Shown piece after piece: positions 16,228-46,814 of a stretch of 64,000 bases of DNA. Each line of letters opens with the position of its first letter. The first letter of the stretch is position 1. Source of the DNA: Escherichia coli (GTDB lineage Bacteria > Pseudomonadota > Gammaproteobacteria > Enterobacterales > Enterobacteriaceae). The notes below the pieces were generated by a model, which worked only from the letters and a program-made list of their open reading frames with translations, ran no database searches and was not told where the DNA came from. Made by a program: the position numbers and the translations under genes. The stretch is from the NCBI RefSeq assembly GCF_016026235.1, contig NZ_CP065613.1, one strand, 5' to 3'.

Positions 16228-17604
16228 GTGAAAAACGCGTCAATCGTATCGGAAGATACTGCGTCGAATCAAGAGCCGACGCTTCATCGCGGATTACATA
16301 ACCGTCATATTCAACTGATTGCGCTGGGTGGCGCCATTGGTACTGGTCTGTTTCTTGGCATTGGCCCGGCGATTCAGATGGCGGGTCCGGCTGTATTGCT
16401 GGGCTACGGCGTCGCCGGGATCATCGCTTTCCTGATTATGCGCCAGCTCGGCGAGATGGTGGTCGAAGAGCCTGTATCCGGTTCATTTGCCCACTTTGCC
16501 TATAAATACTGGGGACCGTTCGCCGGGTTCCTCTCCGGCTGGAACTACTGGGTGATGTTCGTGCTGGTGGGAATGGCAGAGCTGACCGCTGCGGGCATCT
16601 ATATGCAGTACTGGTTCCAGGATGTTCCAACGTGGATTTGGGCTGCCGCCTTCTTTATTATCATCAACGCCGTTAACCTGGTAAACGTGCGCTTATATGG
16701 CGAAACTGAGTTCTGGTTTGCGCTGATTAAAGTGCTGGCAATCATCGGTATGATCGGCTTTGGTCTGTGGCTGCTGTTTTCTGGGCACGGCGGCGAGAAA
16801 GCCAGTATCGACAACCTCTGGCGCTACGGTGGTTTCTTCGCCACCGGCTGGAATGGGCTGATTTTGTCGCTGGCGGTAATTATGTTCTCCTTCGGCGGTC
16901 TGGAGCTGATCGGGATTACTGCCGCTGAAGCGCGCGATCCGGAAAAAAGCATTCCAAAAGCGGTAAATCAGGTGGTGTATCGCATCCTGCTGTTTTACAT
17001 CGGTTCACTGGTGGTTTTACTGGCGCTCTATCCGTGGGTGGAAGTGAAATCCAACAGTAGCCCGTTTGTGATGATTTTCCATAATCTCGACAGCAACGTG
17101 GTAGCTTCTGCGCTGAACTTCGTCATTCTGGTAGCATCGCTGTCAGTGTATAACAGCGGGGTTTACTCTAACAGCCGCATGCTGTTTGGCCTTTCTGTGC
17201 AGGGTAATGCGCCGAAGTTTTTGACTCGCGTCAGCCGTCGCGGTGTGCCGATTAACTCGCTGATGCTTTCCGGAGCGATCACTTCGCTGGTGGTATTAAT
17301 CAACTATCTGCTGCCGCAAAAAGCGTTTGGTCTGCTGATGGCGCTGGTGGTAGCAACGCTGCTGTTGAACTGGATTATGATCTGCCTGGCGCATCTGCGT
17401 TTTCGTGCTGCGATGCGACGTCAGGGACGTGAAACACAGTTTAAGGCGTTGCTTTATCCGTTCGGCAACTATCTTTGCATTGCCTTCCTCGGCATGATTT
17501 TGCTGCTGATGTGCACGATGGATGATATGCGCTTGTCAGCGATTCTGCTGCCGGTGTGGATTGTATTCCTGTTTGTAGCATTTAAAACGCTGCGTCGGAA
17601 ATAA
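16228..17604 (+). CDS. pheP: Phenylalanine-specific permease PheP (APC family)
   Basis: The ORF track starts at a GTG at 16192 (470 aa); the GTG at 16228 preceded by AGGGGAAAGG gives the 458-aa form (VKNAS...). Confidence 0.88.
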   Translation: MKNASIVSEDTASNQEPTLHRGLHNRHIQLIALGGAIGTGLFLGIGPAIQMAGPAVLLGYGVAGIIAFLIMRQLGEMVVEEPVSGSFAHFAYKYWGPFAGFLSGWNYWVMFVLVGMAELTAAGIYMQYWFQDVPTWIWAAAFFIIINAVNLVNVRLYGETEFWFALIKVLAIIGMIGFGLWLLFSGHGGEKASIDNLWRYGGFFATGWNGLILSLAVIMFSFGGLELIGITAAEARDPEKSIPKAVNQVVYRILLFYIGSLVVLLALYPWVEVKSNSSPFVMIFHNLDSNVVASALNFVILVASLSVYNSGVYSNSRMLFGLSVQGNAPKFLTRVSRRGVPINSLMLSGAITSLVVLINYLLPQKAFGLLMALVVATLLLNWIMICLAHLRFRAAMRRQGRETQFKALLYPFGNYLCIAFLGMILLLMCTMDDMRLSAILLPVWIVFLFVAFKTLRRK

Positions 17605-17635
17605 GGCATTCACGCTACATCCGACAAAACGATGT

Positions 17636-17669
17636 CCGCTCTCATCCATTCGATGAGAGCGTTTTTTTT
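17636..17669. terminator. Rho-independent terminator between convergent pheP and ybdG
   Basis: Stem GCTCTCATC / GATGAGAGC with a 5-nt loop followed by a run of eight T; lies between the pheP stop (17604) and the ybdG stop (17672). Confidence 0.6.
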
Positions 17670-17671
17670 AA

Positions 17672-18967
<1,296 letters not shown>

Positions 18968-19030
18968 TTATGCAAATCAGGAGAATCTGAGGGGGGATTT
19001 CCTGCGAGGGCTGATGGCAAATACAAAATT

Positions 19031-19116
19031 GCCTGATGCGCTACGCTTATCATGCCTACCTGAATGAATTGGCACGAACTTGTAGGCAGGATAAGGCGGT
19101 CACGCCGCATCCGGCA
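19031..19116. repeat. BIME: two inverted REP elements flanking an approximately 20-bp spacer
   Basis: GCCTGATGCGCTACGCTTATCATGCCTAC and TGTAGGCAGGATAAGGCGGTCACGCCGCATCCGGCA, both REP-like, between ybdG and nfsB. Confidence 0.6.
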
Positions 19117-19176
19117 TAAACAAAGCGCACTTTGTCAGCAATCTGAGCCGGGATGGGGTCCCGGCTGTCAGGAGAA

Positions 19177-19830
19177 TTACACTTCGGTTAAGGTGATGTT
19201 TTGCGGCAGACGAGATTTCGGCAGCGTAGCGTTAAAATCTTCAACGCTGTGATGACCTACCGGAACAACCACCAGACTGGTGTAGCCTTTCTCTTTCAGA
19301 CCAAATTCTGCATCGAGGATGGCGGCGTCAAAACCTTCGATGGGTACCGCGTCCAGACCCAGAGCCGCCACGCCGAGCAGGAAGTTACCGACGTTGAGAT
19401 AAACCTGTTTTGCCATCCACTCTGCATCATCATGCAGATCTTTACGGTGCATATCAGCGAAGAACTTGCGACCTTTATCGTTCGCGGCTTTCGCTTCCGG
19501 CGTGGCAAAGCGGCCATCAGCATCTTCCTGGTCAACAACCAGCTTCAGCCAGGCATCGTCCATCGCGGTTTTTGCACAGAACACCACGACGTGCGAGGCA
19601 TCAAGTATTTTACGTTCGTTGAACACATAATTACCGGCAGCGGATTTGGCAACACGCGCTTTACCTTCTTCCGTGCTGGCAACAATAAAATGCCACGGCT
19701 GGGAGTTGGTGCTGGATGGGCTGTATTGCAGGAGAGTTTTGATCTGCTCGGCCTGTTCCGGGGTAAGTTTTTTGCTGGCATCAAATGCCTTAGTGGAATG
19801 ACGCTTTAAGGCGACAGAAATGATATCCAT
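19177..19830 (-). CDS. nfsB: Oxygen-insensitive NAD(P)H nitroreductase NfsB
   Basis: 217-aa reading from [16 protein letters not shown]... (the ORF track extends 17 codons further upstream). Confidence 0.9.
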
Positions 19831-21798: not shown

Positions 21799-22016
21799 TT
21801 ATGTTGGCGTTTTCTATTCAGTATAGAAGTCGGAGCGGCTGGGCGAGATGCGGAAGTTCTGGAATGTTTCTTTTTTTGATGATGGTGACTGAAGCAAATT
21901 GGCTACATTTTGCAATGTGACCAGTTGCGTCATAGTTGGCTGGCGGCGAAGAATTTTGACGATTGCGGCATGCAGAAAAAAACGGGTTCAGCTTCAGTTG
22001 ATTAAATGAGGAGTGA

Positions 22017-22404
22017 GAAGTCCGAAACAGGATTCACTGTATAAATAAACAGCCATTTTGTTGAGGAAGGGTAAGATAACGGCGGGTGCCTGAAGCTTTC
22101 CGGTTTCAGGTTTACTCTGAGGTCTGGAAAGATGAAGCCCCAGGAGATATTTCTATCAACCCTGGGGCTGCCACTCCAAACCAGACAATTTGGATGGTAG
22201 TTCCTTCTTCGCATGGAGGCAATATAAACATGCTGACGAAATATGCCCTTGTGGCAGTCATAGTGCTGTGTTTGACGGTACTGGGATTTACGCTTCTGGT
22301 CGGAGACTCGCTGTGTGAGTTTACGGTGAAGGAACGTAATATTGAGTTCAGGGCTGTTCTCGCTTACGAACCGAAGAAGTAGCCGTTGTGCGGGGAGTAA
22401 TCCC
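22017..22404 (+). repeat. hok-type locus, tandem copy 1 (5' part and CDS); its 3' end continues at 23699-23796 after the IS
   Basis: Near-identical to 23824-24290 over both coding and non-coding sequence. Confidence 0.75.
22230..22382 (+). CDS. hokE: Hok-family type I toxin (50 aa), copy 1
   Basis: [50 protein letters not shown], with the Hok single-transmembrane signature. Confidence 0.8.
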
Positions 22405-23698
22405 CTGAGGGATCCCCAGAAAATTTAGTAAACCATTATCATATTGGTATACCGTTGCTGTAGAACTTTCAGCCCTGCGTCAAGTGACAGTGTGTTTAGT
22501 ATGAGTGGAGAATGTCGAATCACATTCTCCGCCAGTTTTAATAACGAGATGACTCGCCTGTGCTTCACTGTATTTGCCTGATATTTATGATGTATCCCTT
22601 TGTTTTCCAGGCTGAAACCGCTTAACCACATAATGATACTGGCTAATGTTGCGATCAGACTCAATACCGTGACCCGCCCGGATGAATGACTGGCACCAAA
22701 CCGTAGTCCAAATCCCCAGCGAGGATTTTTTTCATCCCTGAAATTTTGCTCAATTTGCATTCTACGGCTGTATAATTTCATTACCTGTTTTGGCGAGAAC
22801 TCAGTACTGTTTGTGAAAATAAACCATGGTGATTTCCCGGCAGTACGAGCTTTAGCCGTCACCGATGGTCTGGTTGCTCTTTCCTTCGAGCGTTTAAATC
22901 TACGACCTTTAGGCTTACTTTTATAAAGATAAAAATGCCCTTCATGTTGTGCATTTTTATCTCGACCCAGCAGGCCTTCACCTAAATAAATTGCTGTCGT
23001 TGATGCTTTTGTGCCTGAGTCCGACACCTTTTCCCAGCCATTACCAACATTGTAATAATGATTGCCCAGTACCCGGCAAATATAGGTCCAGCCACGGGAG
23101 CGGAGCTGTTGGAACCATCGCCCCTGAAAACCGGCATCTGTAATAACAATGACATCAGTCCCGGGGGAAAAGCACTCAGCAAGCGATTCCAGAAAACGCT
23201 CATGTACATCTGCATTCGCTGTCTGTGATGATGGAACGACACAACTCATCAACGGTAAAGAACGCCCGTCACATGCCAGGCTTGCCCGCAAAAGCTGAAA
23301 ACGAGAGGCATGATAAGCACTCCAGTCAATGAGTATCACAACACGAGACATTCCCCGCGTAATCTTTTGGGTAATTCGCTGAAAAATGGTGGAAACCTCA
23401 TTTTGCAAATGTCGATTCCCCAACAGTCGATCCACCCGCTTTATTTTGTTTTTAACTGATGCCGTACCGGTTAAATGACGCCCGATACTGGTAAGTGTGA
23501 GGGAAGCGCCATTTATTACAGCATTAGTTGCGTCAATCAGTGATTTTTGACGGTAAAGATGCAAAGGGGCCAGTATATTGTTAAGGAAATTTTGGCATAA
23601 TGAACGTGCAGGCATAGTGGTGATCTCCTTGAAATTGTTAGCACAATCAATTAGATCACATCTCACTATGCCTGTCTTGTTTTCTGGGGATTCCTCAG
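22405..23698 (-). mobile_element. IS4-family insertion sequence, probably IS186 (about 1.29 kb)
   Basis: Imperfect terminal inverted repeats CTGAGGGATCCCCAGAAAA and CTGAGGAATCCCCAGAAAA; flanked by a 10-11 bp direct repeat GAGTAATCCC(C); inserted in a GGGG-N6-CCCC target 22 bp after the hok copy 1 stop; one DDE transposase ORF. Confidence 0.8.
22425..23615 (-). CDS. IS4-family DDE transposase
   Basis: 397 aa from the ATG at 23613-23615 (MPARSLCQNF...). Catalytic-region motifs IDWSA, TDAGF and YSRRMQIEQNFRD resemble IS10-type transposases. The 568-aa ORF in the track is read-through into flanking DNA. Confidence 0.85.
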   Translation of the reverse strand: MPARSLCQNFLNNILAPLHLYRQKSLIDATNAVINGASLTLTSIGRHLTGTASVKNKIKRVDRLLGNRHLQNEVSTIFQRITQKITRGMSRVVILIDWSAYHASRFQLLRASLACDGRSLPLMSCVVPSSQTANADVHERFLESLAECFSPGTDVIVITDAGFQGRWFQQLRSRGWTYICRVLGNHYYNVGNGWEKVSDSGTKASTTAIYLGEGLLGRDKNAQHEGHFYLYKSKPKGRRFKRSKERATRPSVTAKARTAGKSPWFIFTNSTEFSPKQVMKLYSRRMQIEQNFRDEKNPRWGFGLRFGASHSSGRVTVLSLIATLASIIMWLSGFSLENKGIHHKYQANTVKHRRVISLLKLAENVIRHSPLILNTLSLDAGLKVLQQRYTNMIMVY

Positions 23699-23758
23699 GA
23701 GTAATCCCCGCATATCCGGTTGTCAGGTCAGGATGGTAAGGCACCTGCTTTACACTTT

Positions 23759-23796
23759 CGCCCGCGGTCAGTGATGGCTGCGGGCGATTTCGTTTT
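23759..23796 (+). terminator. Stem-loop plus T-rich tract: 3' terminator of the hok copy 1 transcript, displaced by the IS
   Basis: GCCCGCGG / CTGCGGGC stem followed by ATTTCGTTTT. Confidence 0.45.
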
Positions 23797-23823
23797 AAGA
23801 GCAATGATGAGTTTTGCCGACAG

Positions 23824-24290
23824 AAGTCCGAAACAGGACTCACTGTATAAATAAACAGCCATTTTGCTAAGGAAGGGTAAGATAACGGCGGGTGCCTGAA
23901 GCTTTCCGGTTTCAGGTTAACTCTGAGGTCTGGAAAGATGAAGCCCCAGGAGATATTTCTATCAATCCTGGGGCTGCCACTCCGAGCCTCAACAACTCGG
24001 ATGGTAGTCCCTTCTTCGCATGGAGGCAATATAAACATGCTGACGAAATATGCCCTTGTGGCAGTCATAGTGCTGTGTTTGACGGTGCTGGGATTTACGC
24101 TTCTGGTCGGAGAGTCGCTGTGTGAGTTCACCGTAAAGGAACGTAATATTGAGTTTAAGGCTGTTCTCGCTTACGAACCGAAGAAGTAGTCGTTGTGCGG
24201 GGAGCAATCCCCGCATATCCGGTTGTCAGGTCAGAGTGGTAAGGCACCTGCTTTACACTTTCGCCCGCAGTCAGTGATGGCTGCGGGCGA
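23824..24290 (+). repeat. hok-type locus, tandem copy 2 (uninterrupted)
   Basis: Aligns to copy 1 and to the displaced copy 1 3' end at 23699-23796, including the terminal hairpin at 24263-24289. Confidence 0.75.
24037..24189 (+). CDS. Hok-family type I toxin (50 aa), copy 2
   Basis: [50 protein letters not shown]; differs from copy 1 at two residues (D/E and R/K). Confidence 0.8.
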
Positions 24291-24310
24291 ATCGTACCAG
24301 ATGTTGTCAA

Positions 24311-24940
24311 TTAATCGTGTTGGCACAGAGTTATGACTATTTTTTCTTTTATCTGCCAGTGCACAGCAAACATCTCATTCTCACGATGAATGATGACCTG
24401 CTGTTTATTCCAGCTAATTATCTGATAGTCCAGAAAACCTGCATCAGTTTGGATCTCACTTGCCTTAAATGCGCTCTCTTTGGCGGAAAATGCCAGTGTC
24501 AGCGCCAGAGAAAAGGCTAAACCGCAGTCTGCGAGTCGCTCGTGTTCTGCTGGTGTAATAATGTTGTCTGCCAATTCGGTCGCTGTTTGCGCAGAAAAAA
24601 TTTCTTCGATATCAACGCCAATCGGTTGACGGGAAACCACGGCCAATGCCGTAGCCCCGCAGTGGCTAATACTGCCGTATACCTCCGCAGGCCACACCGG
24701 TTGGCGTAGCTCGCCGATTGCGGGCACACATTTATAGCCATATTCCCGCAAGGCATAAACAGCAGCGATCCGTCCGGCTAAATGCTCTGTTTTACGTTTA
24801 CGTCCAGCGTGTTGCAGTTGTGCGTAGTGCGGCAGCCAGAGTAAATCCTGCTCACAAAAATTCGCCGGATCGAACTCAACAAAATGCAGCGTATGTCCGG
24901 CAAAGGGGAGGGAGGTATGCGTAGTTTTCATATCGACCAT
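24311..24940 (-). CDS. entD: 4'-phosphopantetheinyl transferase EntD
   Basis: 209-aa reading from MVDMKTTHTSLPF...; the 256-aa ORF in the track extends upstream into the REP element. Confidence 0.85.
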   Translation of the reverse strand: MVDMKTTHTSLPFAGHTLHFVEFDPANFCEQDLLWLPHYAQLQHAGRKRKTEHLAGRIAAVYALREYGYKCVPAIGELRQPVWPAEVYGSISHCGATALAVVSRQPIGVDIEEIFSAQTATELADNIITPAEHERLADCGLAFSLALTLAFSAKESAFKASEIQTDAGFLDYQIISWNKQQVIIHRENEMFAVHWQIKEKIVITLCQHD

Positions 24941-24967
24941 ATCCGAGACTGATGACAAACGCAAAAC

Positions 24968-25067
24968 TGCCTGATGCGCTACGCTTATCAGGCCTACATG
25001 GTCCTGCAATATATTGAATTGGCAAGATTTTTGTAGGCCGGATAAGGCGTTCACGCCGCATCCGGCA
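24968..25067. repeat. BIME: two inverted REP elements, between fepA and entD
   Basis: TGCCTGATGCGCTACGCTTATCAGGCCTAC and TGTAGGCCGGATAAGGCGTTCACGCCGCATCCGGCA; same architecture as the BIME at 19031-19116. Confidence 0.6.
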
Positions 25068-25105
25068 TGAACGACGCGCACTTTGTCAACAATCTGACGT
25101 TAGCA

Positions 25106-27346
25106 TCAGAAGTGAGTGTTTACGCTCATATACCACGTACGTCCCGGTTCGTTATAGGTATACGCCCCGGCACCGGCGATATAGTTGGCCCCTGCCAAAT
25201 CGCCCGTGGTCTGGGCATTACCCGCACGCCACAAACGTTTGTCGAACAGATTGTCCACGCCGCCGGTCAGACTGACATTCTTCGTCACATCCCACGTCGC
25301 GCTCAGCCCAACAATGCTGTAAGGACTAATTTCTTTGGTTTCCGGTCCAACCGCTGGCTGACCTTTATAGTTGTACTTCTTCGGCTGCTGCTTACCGTAC
25401 CAGGTGAAGGTCGTTTGCATCGACAAATCTTCTCGTGCCTGCCAGCTCAGCGTTGAGTTCAACGTATACTCCGGGATGATCGACAAACGGTCGCCCGTGG
25501 TTTTGTTTTCACTCTTCAGCATATAAGTGATGTTATTAGTCCACATCACCGTTTCGCTAACCGGTACGTTTAACGATCCTTCCAGACCTTCAACCACCGC
25601 TTTCGGCACGTTATCCCACTGATAGAGATCGGTGCCGACTGCGTTTTGCCCTACAGCCACATAGCCCGCTTCAATCTTATTGCGATAATCGTTACGGAAC
25701 CAGGTGACGCCCGCCAGCCAGCCGTCGCGTTTGAACTCCAGACCAATCTCCTTGTTGATGCTGGTTTCTGCTTTCAGGTCATCGTTACCTTGCAGATAGC
25801 AGCCGCCCGTGCTGGCATAGCAGCCCTGGCCTTTACTGTAGAGAATGTAGTTCGGGTTAGTCTGGTACAGGCTCGGCGCTTTATAAGCACGGGCAATGCC
25901 CATTTTCAGCGTGAAGTCATCGCCTAAACCTTGCGATATGTTCAGCGCCGGGCTCCAGTTATTGCCGACAATGCTGTGATGATCGAAACGCAGCCCCGGC
26001 GTTACGATGGTGCTGTCAGTCAGCTCCATGTTGTTTTCGGCAAATAGCGAGAAAATTTCTGCTTTTGAATACGGGCTACGGTCGGTGGCACTCACACCAT
26101 CAATAGCGCCGCCGGTGTTCGTCCCGGTCAGAGCCTGGGTATTGGAACTCAAGTCCTTCATCCGCTGCTGATTCCACTCCGTACCCAGCGTCAGCGTCTG
26201 GTTAACGAGGAAATCAATCGGCAGGTTAACTTCACTGTGCAGCATCACGTCATCAAGATCGATATCGACGAAATCCTGTGTCGCTTTTTCGTTAAATTTC
26301 CCTTCGGTACCGCCCGCCAGACCTTCCGGAATACGCGAGTTACGGGTGTGTTCGTACTGCACCCAGTTGCTGGTGGTCACGCCGTTATCCCAGCCACCGT
26401 TCCAGGTCAGCGAGTAGTTCTGGCGATACAGGCGGTTGGTTTCATCGCCATATTTCGAGCGAGTGTAAGCGTCAGAGTTGGTGTTCTGGGTATCGCCTGC
26501 ATACAGGTTACCCTGGCGGCTGTAACCCGCTTCCAGTTCGAGTGATTGCAGAGGCGCAAAGTCCCAGCGCACCACGCCGTTAATATCTTTATTGATCACC
26601 CCTTCGCGCCCGGCTGGTAACGTCGTGGCATACGTTCCGGCACGCGCGGACTGATGGCCCTGGTTGATATCCCACGCGTCAGCCTGAGTTTTGTCGAGGT
26701 TGCCATACAAGCGGAAGCTGAATTCGTCGCCCAGCGGACCGGTCAGGCTAAAGTTAGTGCGTTTGGTGGCACCTTCCTCTTTATGTTCTGGCGCATTGAA
26801 ATATGCGTCCCAGGAGCCGTGCCACTCGCCGCTGCCTTTTTTGGTAATGATGTTAACCACGCCGCCCGCCGCGCCGTTGCCATAACGCGCAGCTGCCGGA
26901 CCACGCAGAACTTCAATACGTTCAATCATTTCAGGTGGCACCCAGGAGGTATCACCACGGGTATCGCGCTCGCCACGCCAGCCCTGACGCACCGAGTTAC
27001 GGCTGCTTACCGGCTTGCCGTCAATCAAAATCAGCGTGTTTTCCGGACCCATACCGCGAATATCAATCTGTCGGTTATTCCCTCGCTGACCACTGGTGGA
27101 GTTACCGGTCAGGTTAACGCCTGGCATGGTACGGATGATCTCCGACACATCGCGGGCAACGGGGTTTTTGCGGATTTCATCTGCGGTGATGGTCGAAACG
27201 CCAGGCGCCTGTAAGTTCTGCTCGGCGGCGGTAACGACAATAGTATCGTCATGTGAAACAGGAGTATCGGTCGGCTCTTGTGCCTGCGCTACCCCATAAA
27301 TCCCCAGATTGACCAACAAGGCCAGGGAATGAATCTTCTTGTTCAT
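25106..27346 (-). CDS. fepA: TonB-dependent ferric enterobactin outer-membrane receptor FepA
   Basis: 746-aa reading from MNKKIHSLALLVNLGIYGVAQA (signal peptide), with TonB-box region and C-terminal aromatic residue; the track ORF extends 20 codons upstream. Confidence 0.95.
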   Translation of the reverse strand: MNKKIHSLALLVNLGIYGVAQAQEPTDTPVSHDDTIVVTAAEQNLQAPGVSTITADEIRKNPVARDVSEIIRTMPGVNLTGNSTSGQRGNNRQIDIRGMGPENTLILIDGKPVSSRNSVRQGWRGERDTRGDTSWVPPEMIERIEVLRGPAAARYGNGAAGGVVNIITKKGSGEWHGSWDAYFNAPEHKEEGATKRTNFSLTGPLGDEFSFRLYGNLDKTQADAWDINQGHQSARAGTYATTLPAGREGVINKDINGVVRWDFAPLQSLELEAGYSRQGNLYAGDTQNTNSDAYTRSKYGDETNRLYRQNYSLTWNGGWDNGVTTSNWVQYEHTRNSRIPEGLAGGTEGKFNEKATQDFVDIDLDDVMLHSEVNLPIDFLVNQTLTLGTEWNQQRMKDLSSNTQALTGTNTGGAIDGVSATDRSPYSKAEIFSLFAENNMELTDSTIVTPGLRFDHHSIVGNNWSPALNISQGLGDDFTLKMGIARAYKAPSLYQTNPNYILYSKGQGCYASTGGCYLQGNDDLKAETSINKEIGLEFKRDGWLAGVTWFRNDYRNKIEAGYVAVGQNAVGTDLYQWDNVPKAVVEGLEGSLNVPVSETVMWTNNITYMLKSENKTTGDRLSIIPEYTLNSTLSWQAREDLSMQTTFTWYGKQQPKKYNYKGQPAVGPETKEISPYSIVGLSATWDVTKNVSLTGGVDNLFDKRLWRAGNAQTTGDLAGANYIAGAGAYTYNEPGRTWYMSVNTHF

Positions 27347-46665: not shown

Positions 46666-46778
46666 AGTCAGAGTGAGGGGGGATGTTGGCGAATGTTGGC
46701 ATAGTGCCGAGGGTTCCCCCTCACCCTAACCCTCTCCCCGATGGGGCGAGGGGACTGACCGAGCGCGTTGATAGCATT

Positions 46779-46814
46779 TGTAGGCCGGATAAAGCGTTCA
46801 CGCCGCATCCGGCA
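46779..46814. repeat. REP element between cstA and ybdD
   Basis: TGTAGGCCGGATAAAGCGTTCACGCCGCATCCGGCA; a GC-rich imperfect palindrome lies just upstream at 46716-46754. Confidence 0.55.

Follow-up and report, generated by a model that had tools for sequence, protein, structure and literature searches.

In Escherichia coli, BIME-1 (RIP/RIB) elements consist of one z1-type and one y-type REP in inverse orientation, occur in single copy and enclose a long L linker that is well conserved and frequently contains an IHF site; z-type iREPs have the ‘type I’ cleavage site TGCC|TGAT, which y iREPs lack (PMC3333891). At the RNA level, stem-loops at 3′ ends give protection against PNPase and RNase II (PMC6061677), and REPs in tandem gene pairs act as stabilisers of the upstream gene and partly Rho-dependent attenuators of the downstream gene, with canonical REPs going together with upstream-biased expression (preprint 10.64898/2026.03.23.713779). 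The fepA–entD locus described here resembles REP325 (yjdMN) and the malE–malF REP in having hairpins between tandem co-transcribed genes, the upstream product being needed in greater amounts, although REP325 is a tandem array of BIME-2 or atypical type, unlike the single unit at fepA–entD. It also resembles the translation-regulating REPs (Liang, Rudd and Deutscher, 2015) in that a REP lies downstream of a stop codon. Translation stalling, however, requires the REP to be within 15 nt of that codon (PMC12306157), and we rejected this model for both of the elements studied here, whose y hairpins begin 38 nt (fepA) and 60 nt (nfsB) beyond the stop codon of the upstream gene. With REPIN/RAYT (TnpA_REP) systems these elements share the organisation of two inverted REPs and a spacer into a unit whose ends are defined, presence/absence polymorphism among strains (at the second site), the lack of a target duplication and TnpA_REP cleavage motifs; no RAYT gene was found in the 64 kb analysed.

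Here we compare two such elements in one 64-kb stretch of E. coli DNA (hereafter the window), which represents the enterobactin region. Site 1 lies between fepA and entD and site 2 between nfsB and ybdG (Table 1). From 24800 to 25250 the window is 100% identical to FDAARGOS_943, the closest complete genome, and 99.3% identical to MC1061, representing K-12-type laboratory strains. Across the 174-nt fepA–entD spacer, K-12 MG1655 and the window have all but one base in common; the exception, 24943, falls outside the BIME unit (24946–25097), so the unit itself is identical in K-12. Both fepA and entD are on the minus strand, with fepA upstream, in the RefSeq annotation of K-12 and of a near-identical strain, and they have been described as one Fur-regulated operon, divergent from fes (PMC10763504). 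Because the two genes are in tandem, the site-1 element is intercistronic; the initial annotation had placed it between convergent genes. A crude scan of 24300–25600 detected neither a sigma-70-like promoter nor an intrinsic terminator. No T runs follow the REP hairpins, and the combination of GC-rich hairpin and U tract that defines an intrinsic terminator is not found there. An internal entD promoter was considered as well and is unsupported, the same crude scan being empty over the fepA–entD spacer.

Our literature search found no paper linking fepA or entD with REP or BIME, and a search on RIP/RIB element names found nothing relevant. The 1989 papers on the sequencing of entD reportedly mentioned REPs upstream of the gene. 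Both site 1, as a BIME-1, and the operon around it are textbook cases, and the finding is real but already known. It has little biological weight; the useful residue is an annotation artefact at entD, described below, together with the corrected orientation of the genes.

Table 1. Features of the fepA–entD (site 1) and nfsB–ybdG (site 2) spacers and their neighbouring genes, in window coordinates.
Feature	Coordinates	Strand	Remarks
ybdG CDS	17672..18919	-	downstream of site 2
Site 2 BIME-1 derivative	19008..19146	.	flank 19008-19029, z1 19030-19059, linker 19060-19081, y 19082-19116, flank 19117-19146
Simple GC hairpin GCCGGGATGGGGTCCCGGC after nfsB	19147..19165	-	counterpart of K-12 hairpin GCCGGGCAGATGCCCGGC
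nfsB CDS	19177..19830	-	upstream of site 2
entD CDS, RefSeq form	24311..24931	-	206 aa, MKTTH...; alternative ATG 24940 (MVDM, 209 aa)
Spurious in-frame entD extension	24932..25081	-	GTG 25081 = 256 aa, GTG 25054 = 247 aa; in-frame TAA 25100-25102
Site 1 outer left flank	24946..24967	.	common to site 2; conserved in 60-80% of 85 family copies
Site 1 z1-type REP	24968..24997	.	starts TGCC|TGAT, ends CTAC on + strand
RF02751 (ES036 ‘sRNA’) Rfam match	24990..25031	-	40.5 bits vs gathering score 37.6; full model 1-43
Site 1 L linker, 35 nt	24998..25032	.	fits consensus linker of 85 BIME-1 copies
IHF core-like site ATTCAATATATTG	25007..25019	-	12/13 to WATCAANNNNTTR, A-tract 5′ of site
Site 1 y-type REP	25033..25067	.	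starts GTAG on + strand; partial naRNA4 (REP325) Rfam match
Site 1 outer right flank	25068..25097	.	boundary set against E. fergusonii and Citrobacter empty sites
fepA CDS	25106..27346	-	stop TGA 25106-25108; 8 nt to element edge, 38 nt to y REP

Site 1 resembles the BIME-1 of E. coli in its inverted, tail-to-tail z and y REPs, its single copy, its long conserved linker with a putative IHF core and its place just 3′ of a gene, and we noted no feature in which it differs. Since each point of the published description (PMC3333891) is found at site 1, we assign it to this class, and we are fairly confident that it is a full-length, near-consensus, non-coding BIME-1 of 152 bp, present as a single copy in the fepA–entD spacer. 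At both sites CTAC and GTAG face the linker, marking one z and one y REP in inverted arrangement; the left, z-type arm carries TGCC|TGAT, and the right, y-type arm carries TGCCGGAT in reverse complement. Both elements are single, extragenic units at a gene 3′ end and belong to a dispersed multicopy family. The call of z1 rather than z2, which follows in part the published consensus sequences, is probable. The left flank of site 1 pairs with 25082–25095 as an inverted repeat of 14 nt (86% complementary).

The predicted IHF core in the site-1 linker is to be read against a chance expectation of ~0.13 matches per 165 nt, given that the window as a whole contains 51 matches at one mismatch or fewer. 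It had been suggested that both elements are possibly IHF-binding units of the RIP type. A search of the two spacers for the IHF consensus is in keeping with this at site 1, where 12 of 13 core positions predict such a site, and not at site 2, where the core is lost and the spacer contains no match at two or fewer mismatches. The two Rfam matches at site 1 we read as catalogue entries for pieces of the repeat and not as evidence of a gene: RF02751 corresponds, on the transcribed strand, to the linker of BIME-1 together with GUAGGCCU and has no match at site 2, while naRNA4 matches part of the y REP.

To place site 1 in its family, one genome per species was scanned for the linker core plus y tail, the y tail being fixed in the pattern, which yielded 85 usable copies from E. 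albertii, E. whittamii, several other Escherichia, E. coli and Pseudocitrobacter. Their consensus is almost base for base that of site 1, flanks included, with a modal unit length of 152 nt, and conservation across the family falls to background exactly at 24946 and 25097. The flanks shared by the two sites, which the coordinates of the initial annotation leave out, thus belong to the family unit. Each E. coli genome has at least 40 matching places, and 5345 of 5426 complete E. coli genomes (98.5%) carry site 1 itself. Exact matches to the BIME-1 linker plus y also occurred in assemblies assigned to Desulfosporosinus and Methylobacterium, where the contigs are very short, and on a contig of a Collinsella MAG; these most likely represent Escherichia contamination of the assemblies.

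A BLAST search of the window with the 152-nt site-1 unit returned site 2 at E = 1.6e-36. The initial annotation had recognised REP pairs at 24968–25067 and, with a start one base later than ours, at 19030–19116, and had described their arms as near-identical; both descriptions are correct, with 29 of 30 positions identical in z1 and 33 of 35 in y. Similarity runs on for ~22 nt to the left and ~30 nt to the right beyond the arms. The possibility that the pairs belong to unrelated families is contradicted by the arm alignment and the BLAST score, which place both in one REP/BIME family. The spacers are not of similar length, as had been stated, but 35 nt at site 1 vs 22 nt at site 2, where 13 nt including the stretch of the IHF core are missing. 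Compared with the BIME-1 class, site 2 thus differs in its short, core-less linker and in paired base changes in its REP tails. The same search returned a lone y REP at 46777–46814. This REP is 97% identical to the site-1 y arm and lies directly after the GC-rich repeat CCCTCACCCTAACCCTCTCCCCGATGGGGCGAGGGG (region 46715–46814), which looks like a boxC-type element.

The site-2 unit begins 30 nt after the nfsB stop codon. K-12 has no element between nfsB and ybdG, where it carries 35 nt with a simple hairpin vs ~185 nt in the window. Only 78 of 5426 complete E. coli genomes contain the site-2 element (absent from 98.6%). Within the same set the short-linker variant occurs at nfsB–ybdG and nowhere else, and the flanking haplotype of site 2 never occurs without the element. 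A metagenome scan for the site-2 linker found no further copy and no donor of the short-linker variant. Site 2 is a rare insertion allele of the same family as site 1 that has lost 13 nt of linker together with the IHF core, and as such an ordinary case of the BIME-associated polymorphism of intergenic regions to which the title of Bachellier et al. (1997) refers. The element may have arrived by recombination and not by transposition, since K-12 differs over all of the 185-nt stretch.

Two further details of site 2 concern its base changes and its ends. Relative to site 1 and to the family consensus, its z1 tail at 19052 reads ATCATGCCTAC and its y tail at 19088 reads GTAGGCAGGAT. These G-to-T and C-to-A changes are mutually complementary, keeping the pairing between the tails of the two REPs and leaving a mismatch in each REP's own stem, and each of the 78 carriers has both. 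Such a pattern would be expected from template switching at a quasi-palindrome or from selection acting on the long hairpin between the REPs. An 8-mer, AATCTGAG, is found both at 18993–19000, in the native left flank that is also present in K-12, and at 19140–19147, at the right end of the unit; this pair is possibly microhomology at an insertion or replacement junction and may be coincidence.

The reading frame of entD remains open into the site-1 element, as the initial annotation had observed: the first start codon after the in-frame TAA is GTG 25081, which lies 47 codons upstream of MVDM and gives an ORF of 256 aa. Could a longer EntD, of 247 or 256 aa, truly be made from a GTG within the element? 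In addition to the open frame, the longer form is called in thousands of public records. We nevertheless consider such an isoform extremely improbable. Among the 85 BIME-1 copies, which lie at unrelated loci, 46 (54%) have no stop anywhere in the unit in the frame equivalent to that of entD, and each of the other five frames is stop-free in 2 to 28 copies; at site 2 there is no open frame. Because the BIME-1 consensus lacks stops in the entD frame, openness is intrinsic to the element and does not reflect coding. The DNA of the element, moreover, is conserved where the putative protein is not: in Escherichia sp. E4742 a deletion of 1 nt in the linker frameshifts the extension, and in a divergent Escherichia-like contig a compensated pair of indels rewrites the residues encoded by the linker. 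Conservation of the extension at the protein level was not found in the EntD orthologues of E. fergusonii and Citrobacter, which are without it. Both GTG codons, furthermore, would lie inside strongly paired REP RNA, and RefSeq carries the 206-aa form both for K-12 and for the near-identical strain.

When 21 EntD sequences from Escherichia and Citrobacter are aligned, the first invariant column is the M of MKTTH, and Citrobacter EntD starts at the same place with MRTTH or MQTTH. The sequences thus point to ATG 24931, three codons downstream of MVDM, as most likely the start of EntD. MVDM, which the initial annotation had taken as the start, is probably not: ATG 24940 reads ATA in E. fergusonii, and only ATG 24931 is conserved in E. 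fergusonii and Citrobacter. The concern that automated annotation might miscall this start was justified, the 247-aa form (from GTG 25054, inside the y REP) being the representative of clusters with 2481, 63 and 76 members; accessions carrying it include EOX25920.1 and STC87450.1. Thousands of public records, RefSeq excepted, thus contain a false N-terminal extension of EntD of 41 or 50 residues, and an equal artefact is to be expected wherever a BIME-1 sits in frame upstream of a gene.

The element is also found at the same position, beside the EntD orthologue, in Escherichia sp. E4742 and in the Escherichia-like contig, which comes from a metagenome and is more divergent. In E. fergusonii and Citrobacter the fepA–entD spacer measures only 49–50 nt and contains a 26-nt GC-rich hairpin. 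The simple hairpin at the same intercistronic position in these relatives makes a stem-loop the conserved feature of the spacer, and their otherwise empty spacers indicate that the element occupies the place of a simpler, ancestral stem-loop. Empty-site comparisons revealed no target-site duplication at site 1 or site 2, as is expected for transposition of the IS200/IS605-like HUH type. Relative to E4742, the element is 98.7% identical vs 95.8% for the fepA 3′ end and 89.9% for entD; relative to the divergent contig the values are 93.5% for the element, 90.7% for fepA and 82.1% for entD. The higher identity of the element than of its neighbours fits constraint; homogenisation or gene conversion among copies could also account for it.

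On the transcribed strand, the RNA of site 1 is predicted to fold at -74.7 kcal/mol (z = -5.2 vs shuffles) and that of site 2 at -71.3 kcal/mol (z = -4.2 vs shuffles). By analogy with REPs that have been studied, the site-1 element would be transcribed within the fepA–entD mRNA, and its very stable hairpins would block 3′-to-5′ exonucleases, stabilising the fepA segment, and partly attenuate read-through into entD; with both effects at work, FepA would be plentiful and EntD scarce. At the DNA level, the element may in addition offer a candidate IHF site. We find it plausible that the element acts as a stabiliser of the fepA mRNA 3′ end and an attenuator of read-through into entD. Such a role is in keeping with a gene order in which an outer-membrane receptor made in large amounts precedes an enzyme made in small amounts, and with the simple hairpin at the same place in relatives without the element. 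Against a local role, E. fergusonii and Citrobacter manage without the site-1 element, and the absence of site 2 from most E. coli genomes indicates that such elements are dispensable. A tentative, and at best possible, evolutionary reading is that a BIME-1 displaced the ancestral 26-nt hairpin and then came under tighter constraint than the flanking genes, as a domesticated element setting the FepA:EntD ratio. If this is true, the nfsB–ybdG allele, in which a core-less BIME-1 replaces K-12's U-rich tail after the nfsB hairpin, is a natural experiment. As a minor evolutionary point, empty-site comparisons exist for both copies, and the nfsB–ybdG allele is usable as a test of the effect of a BIME on its neighbours. 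The left flank of the element ends 14 nt before the entD ATG, and we speculate that this nearness may let it influence entD initiation.

The same observations can be weighed for other explanations. Both elements could be neutral or selfish, REPIN-like mobile DNA, moved by a REP-associated tyrosine transposase, simply tolerated at gene 3′ ends and having no local function at fepA–entD. The presence/absence polymorphism of site 2, the lack of the site-1 element from E. fergusonii and Citrobacter, the lack of a visible target-site duplication and the TnpA_REP cleavage motifs TGCC|TGAT and GGCC|TACA in the z1 arm (PMC3333891) would all be in keeping with this. We think it unlikely as a full account, however, given that site 1 is fixed in nearly all E. 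coli genomes, is kept in diverged Escherichia lineages at an identity above that of both flanking genes, and sits exactly where the ancestral hairpin was. A mobile origin can, moreover, be compatible with a later local function, so that this explanation and the proposed stabiliser and attenuator role need not exclude one another.

The main role of the element might instead be exerted on DNA, through IHF bound to the linker and the resulting bending, in shaping the local topology of the chromosome or in insulating supercoiling where the strongly induced fepA ends. The 12/13 IHF core with its upstream A-tract in the conserved linker would be consistent with this, and IHF binding to the BIME-1 class is the topic of Boccard and Prentki (1993), as cited in PMC3333891. 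Yet site 2 retains its REP arms and flanks with the IHF core gone, and a model REP had no role in chromosome compaction (preprint 10.64898/2026.03.23.713779), and we regard a main role of this kind as quite unlikely. Very unlikely, in our estimate, is that the linker is an independent small RNA of Rfam family ES036. The match on the transcribed strand does exceed the gathering score, but the 43-nt model is the BIME-1 linker with its GUAGGCCU tail, which every BIME-1 copy would match; no promoter-like site was found in 24300–25600, and the literature search retrieved no paper describing ES036.

Beyond the two elements, a few observations were made elsewhere in the window. Downstream of entD, 22016–24290 holds two hokE/sokE units as direct repeats that are 95–96% identical, with Rfam sok matches at 22084–22238 and 23890–24045 and an IS4-like ISEc60 copy (~22390–23711) between them. 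K-12 has one hokE and IS186B in this region, FDAARGOS_943 is ~503 nt shorter there, and in E. fergusonii, too, two hok genes stand in tandem beside entD, 502 nt from each other. Some public EntD entries, of 236 aa, have their last residues swapped for the unrelated sequence ...IKEKNSHNSVPTRLIDN..., which points to disruption of the entD 3′ end by the neighbouring hok/IS region in some strains. On the far side of ybdG from site 2, a decayed y-REP fragment, AAGGCATTCACGCTACATCCGAC, at 17603–17667 overlaps the pheP stop codon (17602–17604) and is followed by a clean hairpin and T-run terminator between the convergent pheP and ybdG.
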